Assembly (NCBI RefSeq): GCF_006345805.1
Contig: NC_043003.1
Span: 1,488,001 to 1,552,000, forward strand
Source of the DNA: Octopus sinensis
Taxonomy: Eukaryota
DNA length: 64,000 nucleotides
Reading direction: 5' to 3'
The notes beneath the pieces were generated by a model, which saw only the letters and a program-made list of their open reading frames with translations, was not told the DNA's origin and ran no database searches. This document shows positions 10,477-14,908 of the stretch, in pieces; positions within the stretch are counted from its first letter, which is position 1; the number at the start of each line of letters is the position of its first letter. Both the position numbers and the translations under genes were made by a program.

Positions 10477-10755
10477 TATAATTATCAACATAATTATAAC
10501 AAGGGTTTGGCTTGTGCCTCACCACGCACTGAAAAATAGACGTCAAAAGACATTATTACCACAATAAATTCTCGGAGAATTTATAGTGGTAATAATGTCT
10601 TTAAACGTCTATTTTTCAGTGCGTGGTGAGGCACAAGCCAACCCTTGTTATAATTATGTTGATAATTATAAAATATTTATAAAATTTACCTATGGGCTTT
10701 TATTCTGCACTGACCACTTGGTAAAAATCATTAACGATTTTACCCTTTATTATTA
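10477..10755. repeat. TA-flanked fold-back (~95-bp arms, 10477-10670) plus tail; probable PLE-end remnant
   Basis: Direct palindrome centred at ~10573, with (TA)n on both sides. Confidence 0.7.
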
Positions 10756-10792
10756 ATAATATATATATATATATATATTATTATTAATAATA

Positions 10793-10905
10793 CTGCGCTG
10801 TTAGAGGGCCGACGAAGTTATTAAGGCGAGGGGGCCCGGCCGCGACTTGTTTGGCGGATCTCAGTTTCGTCGCGCGCGACGCGTTCGCGGCGGCGGCAGC
10901 AGTGG
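10793..10905 (-). other. Probable ITS1 5' portion (~110 nt)
   Basis: Very GC-rich sequence directly contiguous with the 18S 3' end, in an otherwise AT-rich context. Confidence 0.7.
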
Positions 10906-10966
10906 TAATGATCCCTCTGTAGGTTCACCTACGGAAACTTTGTTACGACTTTTACTTACTCTAAGC
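10906..10966 (-). rRNA. 18S rRNA 3'-terminal fragment (orphon pseudogene), distal to the hAT insertion
   Basis: TAATGATCCcTCtGtAGGTTCACCTACGGAAACtTTGTTACGACTTTTACTT is the reverse complement of the universal 18S 3' end, with a few substitutions. Confidence 0.92.
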
Positions 10967-13810
10967 CAGGGGTCTCCAAAGTTTTCCAGCGGAGGGCCAC
11001 ATTGCTGAATTTTTAAAGCTACGGGGGCCAAGGTTCTAAATTATTTATTTTGCCAAAATAATATAAATAAATAGTGAATTAATAATTAAAAAAGGTTATT
11101 TATTCAGTACATAATCACAATGTATATAATATCAGTAACAATTAACATGTTTTTTTAAACTTTGATCAATAGGGGAAACATGAAATTGTTTCATTTCTGA
11201 CAAAATTTTGTCCAACTGAGGTTCAAAATGAGTGGTTCCAATAACAAGCAATGCATTTAAATGTTCATCAGACAATTGTGATCTGTAGCAGGATTTTGTG
11301 TATTTCATCTTTGAAAAAGTCTTCTCACACAAATATGTGGTGCCAAAAACTGAAATGAATTCACAGGCAAACCTCCTTAAATGAAGAAATTGGTCGGATG
11401 GAAGGCATTTGTAGAATTCAATCAAATTTCCCTCTTTATATTTGTCCTTCAGGATGTCATTGGATTGCAAATCAATAACTTCCATTTGTAACTCAGAAGA
11501 ACAGAGTTAAATGGATTTTCAAAAATTCTTAGTTTTGAAGAACATGCATCAAGATCAGAAAAACGTTCTTCAAACTGTTGTTTCAAAGCTAAAATGACAT
11601 CTTGAGCAAACAAGTTTGGAAATGGAGTGGCAGCTTCCTGTCTATATTTGTCACATCGTGAAAAATGAGTAAAGCAGCTTCTTGTTAACTGACTTTCAAA
11701 TAGTATTAATTTCTTACGAAAAGCTTTCACCTTTGAGTACAAATCACAGATGAGTGAAGTTTCACCTTGTATCCGTAGGTTGAAATCATTGAGATGCATA
11801 GTTAAATCGGCTGAAAATGCTAATTTCCAGAGCCATTCACTGTCTTTGAGCAACACCTGTGAATGGTTTTTCTCATTTAAAAATATTTCAATTTCAGTTC
11901 GAAGCTCAAAAAATCTAGCCAGAATTTTTCCATAGCTAAGCCATCTTACTGAAGTATAGTAAGGTAGGTCTGGAAACTCAGCATTCATTTCCTCCAAGAA
12001 ATCACGAAATTGGCGATGTTTGAGTCCATGAGATCTTATGTAGTTAACAGTGGAAATCACAGGATCTAATACAGATGATAAATCAAGATGCTTTCCACAC
12101 AGTGCTTGCTGATGAAGAATACAATGCAATACCAAAGGTTTCAATCCACCGGAATTCTCAATTACTTTGTTAATTTGCCCAACTAAGCCCTTTTTGGTTC
12201 CACACATATTTCTGCCACCATCTGTTGTTATGCATTTTAGTTTTTTCCATTCCAAATTATACTCAGCCACTGACTTTTCCACTTCTCTAAAAATATCTAT
12301 GCCTGTTGTTGTTCCATGCATGCTGTGCACAGATACAAGTTCCTCAGTAATCTCAAAATTGGCATTTATTCCTCTGATGAACAATAACAATTGGGATGTG
12401 TCTGATACATCAATTGACTCATCAAGTGCAACAGAAAAGCATACAAACTTGCTGGCTTTGTCTTTTAGCTGTGATTTAATATTTCTTTCAATATGTTCAA
12501 CCCTACGAGCAACAGTGTTCGCAGAAAGACTAATTGCGGAAAATAAATCTACGTTTTCTGGACACATTTCCTTAGCTACCTCATTCAAGCACTTTTAAAT
12601 AAGTTCACCATCTGTAAATGGCTTACCTTTCTTCGCCAAAAGGTTAGCAACATGGAAGCTTGCTCTTGTTGCTCTCTCTTTTTCTACAGCCCTCTTCTTG
12701 AAAACAAACTGCATTGATGATAAATTCTTCTTTAATTTGTCAAATTTCTCTTTACGTAGCTGTCCAATGAATTGGTAGTACTGTGATGAATGCTTTTTTT
12801 CATAATGTCTCCGAATGTTGTACTCTTTAAGTACTGCAATTGTGTCGGTGCATATAACGCATAGTGCCTTGTTGTTTGACTCTATGACAAAATAGTCTAT
12901 GTTCCATTGTTCCTTAAAAACTCTACACTCAGAGTCGATTTTTCGTTTTCTTCCTTGAGCTAACATTTTTACCATGGGTCGACAGATTTTGCTCGACGAT
13001 ATATGTAAAAGGACGAAACAAGTAAAAACAATATTCACAGGTCACTCGATACGTGCATTCACTTCGGCAGCGACGACGACAAATGACTCACACTTGTGCA
13101 CAACGAAAACGCCAAGTCTGTGCTGACTGACGGAATGCGCATCGAACTTTACTCCACGCTGATTGGCGACTGCACCAGGATTAGAAACCACCACACAACG
13201 TCAGGCTCAACCCTCTCTATTCATCGCTCGTGAGATGTAGGTAACATCGATAAATCGATATTTGTCTTCTTTTATTATACTAGGCACGGGACTTTTATTA
13301 ACGTCATACTTGTCGTATCTGCTCTCTCGACAGTTGACGGAATAGGTTGACTTTTCTGCGACATCAATAAAGCTAGAAATTGAATCTCTGCTTCATTGTA
13401 AGCAGCACCATCCATCTCACTGACAATCGCCTATTATCTAAGATGAATGATAGGTAGCTCCATAGCGAAGTTAATTCATTTTATGGTGGGTCTGATGGGT
13501 CAGTTAAAACGGGGGGAGTGGAAAAGAACCTATATTTACACTAAAGTTTAGTGTATAAATTTTTAATTCGCCGGCGCAATTTAAAGACATTAATTGATGG
13601 CAAATCAATTAGCGTCGTCTTGCGTCTATTTGCTGTACTATATTTGTCAAACGTATTAAAAGGGGTGTAAAGTATATTTGTTTTTGTATGATTTCGGCAA
13701 GGCTTGTTTTTCGACATTTGTTTTATAATTTTGGAGGACAGCTCGGCGGGCCGGATTAAAAACCTTGGCGGGCCGAATCCGGCCCGCGGGCCGTACTTTG
13801 GAGACCCCTG
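10967..13810 (-). mobile_element. hAT DNA transposon, Buster/Charlie (GTF2IRD2/SPIN-like) group, full length 2844 bp
   Basis: Perfect 16-bp TIR CAGGGGTCTCCAAAGT at both ends; 8-bp TSD CTCTAAGC (10959-10966 and 13811-13818) with central TA; transposase ORF inside. Confidence 0.96.
11132..12975 (-). pseudogene. hAT transposase (~600 aa) with one in-frame stop (12597-12595) and one frameshift (~11490)
   Basis: KRKIDSECRVFKEQW..YF...ALCVIC...KEYNIRRHY zinc finger; FSVALDES; CITTDGGRNMCG; HCILHQQALC; VRWLS; FGTTYLCEKTFSKMKYTKS..RSQLSDEHL dimerisation motif. Confidence 0.93.
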
Positions 13811-13936
13811 CTCTAAGCGATCGGGTTCGGTCGTCTTCTCCGAGCCATCAGAGAACGCGCCGACGACGGCGCGGAACGCCGCCGCGCGTAAGCGGACTCG
13901 TCGGCCAGATCCGAGGACCTCACCGGACCGTTCGAC

Positions 13937-13977
<41 letters not shown>

Positions 13978-14162
13978 GATCGACGCGGGCTGATGACCCG
14001 CGCCTACCGGGAATTCCTCGTTCACGGGGTTGGTTCCAGACCCCGATCCCTATCACAGGAGATGGTTCAGAGGTTTCCCGACTCTCGCGGGCCGGGGGAT
14101 ATGCGCCCACCGACACCACCAGTGTATCGCGCGGGCGGCCCCGGACATCTTAGGGCATCACA
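13811..14162 (-). rRNA. 18S rRNA fragment (orphon pseudogene), proximal to the hAT insertion, 5'-truncated
   Basis: GACGGGCGGTGTGTACAAAGGGCAGGGAC, GGGAATTCCTCGTTCA and CCCCGGACATCTTAGGGCATCACA are universal SSU motifs (reverse complement); ends abruptly in TATATA. Confidence 0.92.
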
Positions 14163-14550
14163 TATATATATTCTTTTTTAAATTTCTCAAATTTATTTAC
14201 CTATATCGTATCATGTCTTCGCTATGTTGTGAAATATGGAGTTCCAGGCAGGGGAAGGTAATCAGGGATTTTTCGGTATAAGGGAGATAAATCAAAGATG
14301 TTAGGAATGACTAGGCTTGATTAATCTAACATGATTTGGTTTAGAAGGAATAGAATGTTACAAGTGGTTAGGTTTTGCTTTATATTTTTTTCATCGAGGT
14401 AAGTTTTCTTATTTAAAAACGTTAGAAATGGTTAAGTTTTGGCTTATATTTTTCAATGAAGAAGGTTTCCTTATTTAGTCTAACTTGTGTTGGTGTTCCA
14501 ATGGCACATTAATAGAATGGAAAGATTACAAATTGTGGTAGCAGTTGCTT

Positions 14551-14908
14551 TGCGCCTTTCTCAATGTGTTTACTAAAGAGTATCATTCTGTATTCTGGGA
14601 ATGCAATGTGTTGTCGATGCAGAGTGCATCTGCGTTCGAGCGATAATCCCGTGGACCCTATGTAGCTTTGGTGGCAGCCCGAGCATCTTAGGACATAAAT
14701 CAGGTTTTCTGAAGCACAAGTAAAATCAGTGCGCCTTTCTCAATGTGTTTACTAAAGGGTATCATTCTGTATTCTGGGAATGCAATATGTTGTCGATGCA
14801 GAATGCATCTGCGTTCGAGCGATAATCCCGAGGACCCTATGTAGCTTTGGTGGCAGCCCGAGCATCTTAGGACATAAATCAGGTTTTCTGAAGCACAAGT
14901 AAAATCAG
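14551..14908. repeat. 179-bp direct tandem duplication
   Basis: 14551-14729 matches 14730-14908 with a few substitutions. Confidence 0.95.

Follow-up and report, generated by a model that had tools for sequence, protein, structure and literature searches.

Among DNA transposons, the hAT superfamily is defined by an 8-bp target site duplication (TSD; PMC3942097). Within it, the elements of the Buster group measure 2.5-3.0 kb, carry one ORF of ~600 aa and, at their termini, inverted repeats of 14-16 bp (TIRs), and generate 8-bp TSDs (PMC12637253) with the consensus nnnTAnnn (PMC3499496). Multicopy RNA genes are the insertion targets of other elements, among them R2, R8 and Dada (PMC5035012, PMC8869645), and Pokey occupies a specific 28S site and has persisted for over 100 million years (PMC3315735). 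A report of an rDNA-specialist hAT was not found in the literature covered, which was mostly without subscription papers, Repbase and supplements, and the available text of one source lists a hAT only in a 5S spacer (PMC10946416). The locus described here, from Octopus sinensis, places a hAT element in the 3' part of an 18S rRNA gene fragment. Very probably, a dispersed, young hAT of Buster type landed there late and only once, in an 18S/ITS1 orphon, by means of its ordinary palindromic target preference.

The window, i.e., the whole 64-kb stretch of DNA that was analyzed, contains at 10967-13810 a hAT element of 2,844 bp with perfect 16-bp TIRs and the TSD CTCTAAGC, which splits an rDNA orphon of ~520 bp of 18S/ITS1. 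The features of the locus (window 10752-14171) are as follows:

10752-10792, no strand: TA-rich tract, left boundary of the orphon
10793-10905, minus strand: ITS1-like start, a variant unlike current units (left flank 70% identical overall to the near-intact unit L036)
10906-10958, minus strand: final 53 nt of the 18S rRNA gene, with 5 differences relative to near-intact units
10959-10966, no strand: left copy of the 8-bp TSD CTCTAAGC
10967-13810, minus strand: hAT transposon, apparently of Buster type, 2,844 bp; reads crossing from 18S into the element would continue into CAGGGGTCTC
10967-10982, no strand: TIR, 16 bp
11156-12975, minus strand: transposase gene, broken by a stop (12595-12597) and a frameshifting 13-bp deletion (after 11499); where sister copies have it unbroken, it encodes 610 aa
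13795-13810, no strand: TIR, 16 bp
13811-13818, no strand: right copy of the 8-bp TSD CTCTAAGC
13819-14162, minus strand: piece of the 18S rRNA gene that lies upstream of the insertion site, with 16 differences over 352 nt relative to near-intact units
14163-14171: short TA run, right boundary of the orphon

An earlier sequence-only reading had described a 2,844-bp hAT with 16-bp TIRs and a TSD near the 3' end of 18S, an anatomy that is confirmed here, with the 8-mer CTCTAAGC lying 54-61 nt before the Rfam 18S 3' end. Its statement that removal of the element and one TSD leaves continuous 18S also holds: the 18S part of both flanks aligns gap-free with adjoining positions in a near-intact unit, with one copy of the 8-mer in common. 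The flanks are 18S within 10906-14162 but not at 10793-10905, the ITS1-like part, which matches the short fragment L062 at 74/79 positions (94%). The Rfam match, which comes without helix numbering, puts the insertion site on the 3' strand of the final long 18S helix, which we take to be helix 44. A narrow E-value scan, the only one in which the 18S fragment is visible, matched the minus strand of the right flank to SSU_rRNA_eukarya (E 4.9e-50); a whole-window Rfam scan at the gathering threshold returned nothing. No further rDNA was found within the 64-kb window or in the preceding 8 kb. In a search of public runs, 20 of 24 (8 studies) contain the stretch or part of it, most of the matching words coming from the multicopy element and being uninformative on the junction; three of the runs listed are raw-read sets of 59-69 billion letters.

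Two further features lie on either side of the orphon. At 10504-10644, between TA tracts, there is a 141-bp MITE-like palindrome with 70-bp arms that are 94% complementary; matches to MIR4374 and MIR841 at 10500-10669 fall below the gathering score and reflect this palindrome. At 14551-14908, two tandem 179-bp copies (98% alike) translate into a nuclease-like fragment, presumably akin to GIY-YIG.

The transposase supports the placement of the element. In the sister copy L002 the frame is open over 610 aa, and 9 of the 28 aligned family copies retain a Met-initiated frame of >600 aa; in the window copy, the premature stop and the 13-bp deletion make the earlier label "near-intact" an overstatement. 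Pieces of the transposase match the Spin-doc zinc finger (PF18658) and, above cut-off, the hAT dimerization domain (PF05699), and patterns for an acidic triad with CxxH occur at residues 183, 250, 284 and 554 of L002, motifs that presumably play these roles; the C-terminal dimerization domain and the triad with CxxH characteristic of hAT transposases are thereby both present. Likewise, the TIRs (16 bp) and the length (2,844 bp) fall within the ranges of 10-25 bp and 2.5-5 kb for hAT elements. Among 30 full-length loci, whose flanks are diverse, the 8-bp TSD is perfect in 28 and has 1 and 2 mismatches in the remaining two; it conforms to the nnnTAnnn of the Buster group, with T at position 4 in 28/29 and A at position 5 in 27/29. 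The top protein match of the L002 frame is an Octopus protein, 100% identical over 86% of the length, and most of the other named matches are GTF2IRD2-like or EPM2AIP1, with SPIN-DOC-like proteins also among the best. We take the GTF2IRD2/EPM2AIP1-like and Spin-doc names to be markers of the Buster group, and on these similarities the zinc finger and the protein matches agree with a Buster-type hAT. Solved structures gave no convincing match to the transposase.

The family was surveyed in the 2.72-Gb assembly, where at least 33 near-full-length matches occur among the 40 of 225 candidates that were scored. Exact left ends number 34, and right ends with at most one mismatch number 38, all at locations already recorded, which puts the family at ~39 copies. 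Divergence from the family's commonest letters is 0-0.53% in the 28 aligned copies (all <0.6%), L009 and L030 being left out of this alignment and of the symmetrized sites used below. The window copy shows 5 substitutions (5/2,844, 0.18%) and one 13-bp deletion, and indels of the kind that long-read error typically produces are numerous in some sister copies. Two copies lacking their 5' parts, L135 and L136 (G000:C1:107084290 and 107093707), lie 9.4 kb apart with right flanks 98% identical, and this pair is a local duplication that followed insertion. Altogether, the family is a young, dispersed and new octopus member of the Buster-type hATs.

The sequence-only reading had proposed a candidate rDNA-targeting hAT. 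Of the checks it suggested, the survey of termini and flanks was run in the assembly, and it returned both outcomes named beforehand as contrary to targeting, i.e., diverse non-rDNA flanks at the other copies and a sole 18S junction carrying the orphon's alleles (for example at 10958 and 13843, where current units have other letters). Specifically, rDNA flanks occur at 1 of 39 family loci, whereas an rDNA-specific element would have most copies at one rDNA position. Among 72 flanks, the two of the window copy alone match a 52-kb rDNA reference that contains complete 18S, 5.8S and 28S matches; three flank matches to L116 lay in its non-rDNA part and were gone once the reference was cut to rDNA. 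Each hAT-18S junction pattern has a single match in 2.72 Gb, with 2 mismatches allowed and both element orientations searched. A motif next to the site was matched 49 times in all; 41 of these matches are empty (several of them in long near-intact rDNA units), one is occupied (the window copy) and 7 are other, of which 4 are ends of fragments and 3 are repeats of the motif in tandem. Current rDNA units thus contain no inserted copy at this fixed position in the assembly, in which the arrays are probably under-represented, the true tandem arrays being probably collapsed or missing. Fourteen places close to the site where an 18S fragment breaks off abruptly were checked as other insertions, and 18S resumed within 10 kb in none. 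Targeting of rDNA by the hAT family is not supported.

Other observations concern the rDNA itself. Ten short dispersed 18S fragments (L044, L045, L047, L050-L054, L056 and L059) start at scattered 5' positions, and their 3' ends cluster 34-61 nt short of the mature 18S terminus, in eight cases following A-rich runs; no fragment has 18S resuming within 10 kb, and they look like internally primed rRNA retrocopies. In the current ITS1 (L032-L043), an internal repeat of ~357 bp is present two or three times, and L196 carries a 23-bp 18S piece in four tandem repeats.

Whether such a hit calls for targeting depends on what the family prefers. The sequence-only reading had considered a chance hit unlikely given that rDNA makes up ~0.5 kb of the window, which is the wrong yardstick, since dozens of such fragments exist genome-wide. 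Its alternative, insertion through the ordinary Buster preference, is supported, and is sharpened to ~20 bp rather than NNNTANNN alone. The 54 symmetrized sites reveal a palindromic preference that extends past nnnTAnnn, with T at -2 (48/54), A at -3 (40/54) and T/C at -5 (49/54), and the consensus is approximately T-Y-N-A-T-N-[CTCTAGAG]-N-A-T-N-R-A, ~20 bp around an 8-bp TSD with a central TA. In a 20-column matrix built from 32 other sites (L030 and six one-ended loci yielded none), in which three related LINE sites are included and columns are assumed independent, the 18S insertion site scores 9.8 against a leave-one-out median of 9.9; 17 of the 32 real sites score as high, compared with a fraction of 1.5e-4 of 97,023 background positions. 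Across 1.9 kb of 18S it ranks first (10.1; next 3.6), and across 20 kb of rDNA-rich sequence it ranks first with 12 columns and second with 20 columns; its sequence is unchanged in current rDNA units. Good sites that lie in repeats are also used by the family more than once: L017, L133 and L134 (G000:C5:77433774, C11767:6136 and C2317:2924) occupy one homologous LINE reverse-transcriptase site with the TSD GGGTAGAC, in three different LINE copies whose flanks are 82-91% alike, L134 being reversed and its second flank unrelated. Even with the motif, the chance of one 18S hit is about 0.001-0.002 (38 copies, 40 sites, the hAT family alone), a rarity that we take to be offset by the large number of young families and windows in the scan, a look-elsewhere argument that is qualitative.

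Elements that do specialize in rDNA are visible in the same assembly. One example is a 4.6-kb R2-like element (L114:4736-9317, G000:C18) with an open 1,311-aa reverse-transcriptase frame, which lies between TTAAGG and TAGCCAAATG of 28S, a position that we take to be the R2 site. Among 14 inspected loci with an R2-like 3' part, the element ends directly on the exact 28S motif in 9, and the other 5 show no 28S junction within the fetched stretch. R2-like elements are also present in L140-L144 and L146-L148 and form several subfamilies with 80-98% identity. With nine exact R2 junctions against one hAT junction, the assembly does reveal real rDNA specialists repeatedly, which is not the case for the hAT. 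For R2 in molluscs, the available text of one source names the oyster alone and leaves octopus unmentioned (PMC5035012).

This control bears on the possibility that the family leads a double life similar to that of Pokey, inserting genome-wide while occupying a small share of real array units at the conserved site, with the orphon as a by-product. Arrays would offer many good targets, as the site is a top-ranking match that is unchanged in current units, and they are probably under-represented in the assembly; dispersal is compatible with such a life, since Pokey has <20 copies, most of them outside rDNA (PMC3315735). However, no inserted unit faces the 41 empty sites, several of which are in long near-intact units, although R2-inserted units are present; the family is young (0-0.53%), in contrast to the long-lived Pokey; and an insertion adjoining the 18S end would presumably disable the unit. 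We therefore consider this double life distinctly improbable. It is likewise very unlikely that a still-mobile Buster hAT enters real arrays at low frequency, with the invariant 18S site as the one that best meets its preference, a step toward an rDNA-resident hAT. If true, a hAT resident in 18S would bring a second DNA-transposon superfamily, besides that of Pokey, into the large-rRNA niche.

The order of events can be approached through divergence. Against ten near-intact units, the 18S flanks show differences at 21/413 positions (5.1%), some of these differences possibly being ancestral alleles rather than decay, compared with 5/2,844 in the element (Fisher p 3e-15), a gap of about 28-fold. 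Without CpG-type changes, the flanks show 17/413 differences (p 6e-12), and private alleles number 8/413 in the flanks (absent from 37 other loci) against 3/2,844 in the element (p 7e-6). The ITS1 variant of the orphon resembles the short fragment L062 and is a poor match to current units. Since flank divergence greatly exceeds element divergence, the fragment would have left the homogenized array long before the element arrived, whether its differences stem from decay or from ancestral alleles. The sequence-only reading had also offered that the orphon arose as a copy of an rDNA unit already bearing the hAT, which would account for continuous 18S in both flanks and for the perfect TSD. Element and flanks should then be of the same age, yet their divergence differs ~28-fold; moreover, the ITS1 variant is known just as a short fragment, and in the assembly the junction occurs at this locus only, with the orphon's own alleles and no second instance, which renders such copying exceedingly improbable. 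An assembly chimera fusing the hAT to an 18S fragment deserves hardly any credence, for although the locus is judged from the assembly and sister copies carry long-read-type indels, the perfect 8-bp duplication fits the family consensus and collinear 18S with fragment-specific alleles stands on both sides.

The cut-and-paste chemistry of hAT elements is established knowledge, and a late, single insertion through the ordinary preference could have proceeded as follows. Part of an older rDNA unit would have been copied into a TA-rich spot, where it decayed. Much later, transposase from an intact sister copy would have excised the element elsewhere, and the element would have inserted at the fragment's best-matching site with duplication of 8 bp. 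The inserted copy would then have gained its stop and its 13-bp deletion.

The modest lesson of this locus is that it offers a small natural example of sequence preference alone mimicking targeting, seen in the 18S hit and in the LINE site used three times. What remains is a young octopus Buster family with a strong target preference, in which 9 of 28 aligned copies have a 600-aa frame. Compared with TcBuster, SPIN and AnBT-type elements of the Buster group, the octopus element is alike in length, single ORF, TIRs and TSD consensus, whereas the target preference of its family reaches ~6 bp past the TSD on each side and the window copy is broken. As with the R2 and R8 non-LTR elements and the Dada DNA transposons, insertion took place where a multicopy RNA gene is conserved; however, their copies lie mainly at the target, in contrast to 1/39 for the octopus hAT. 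Long persistence in the host lineage, as in Pokey, is not seen in the 28 copies at 0-0.53%, which describe a young family. Pokey (piggyBac, Daphnia) and the octopus hAT are both DNA transposons of modest copy number found mostly outside rDNA, but whereas Pokey occupies one particular 28S site of real units, the octopus hAT, a young family of another superfamily, made one hit in a decayed fragment.
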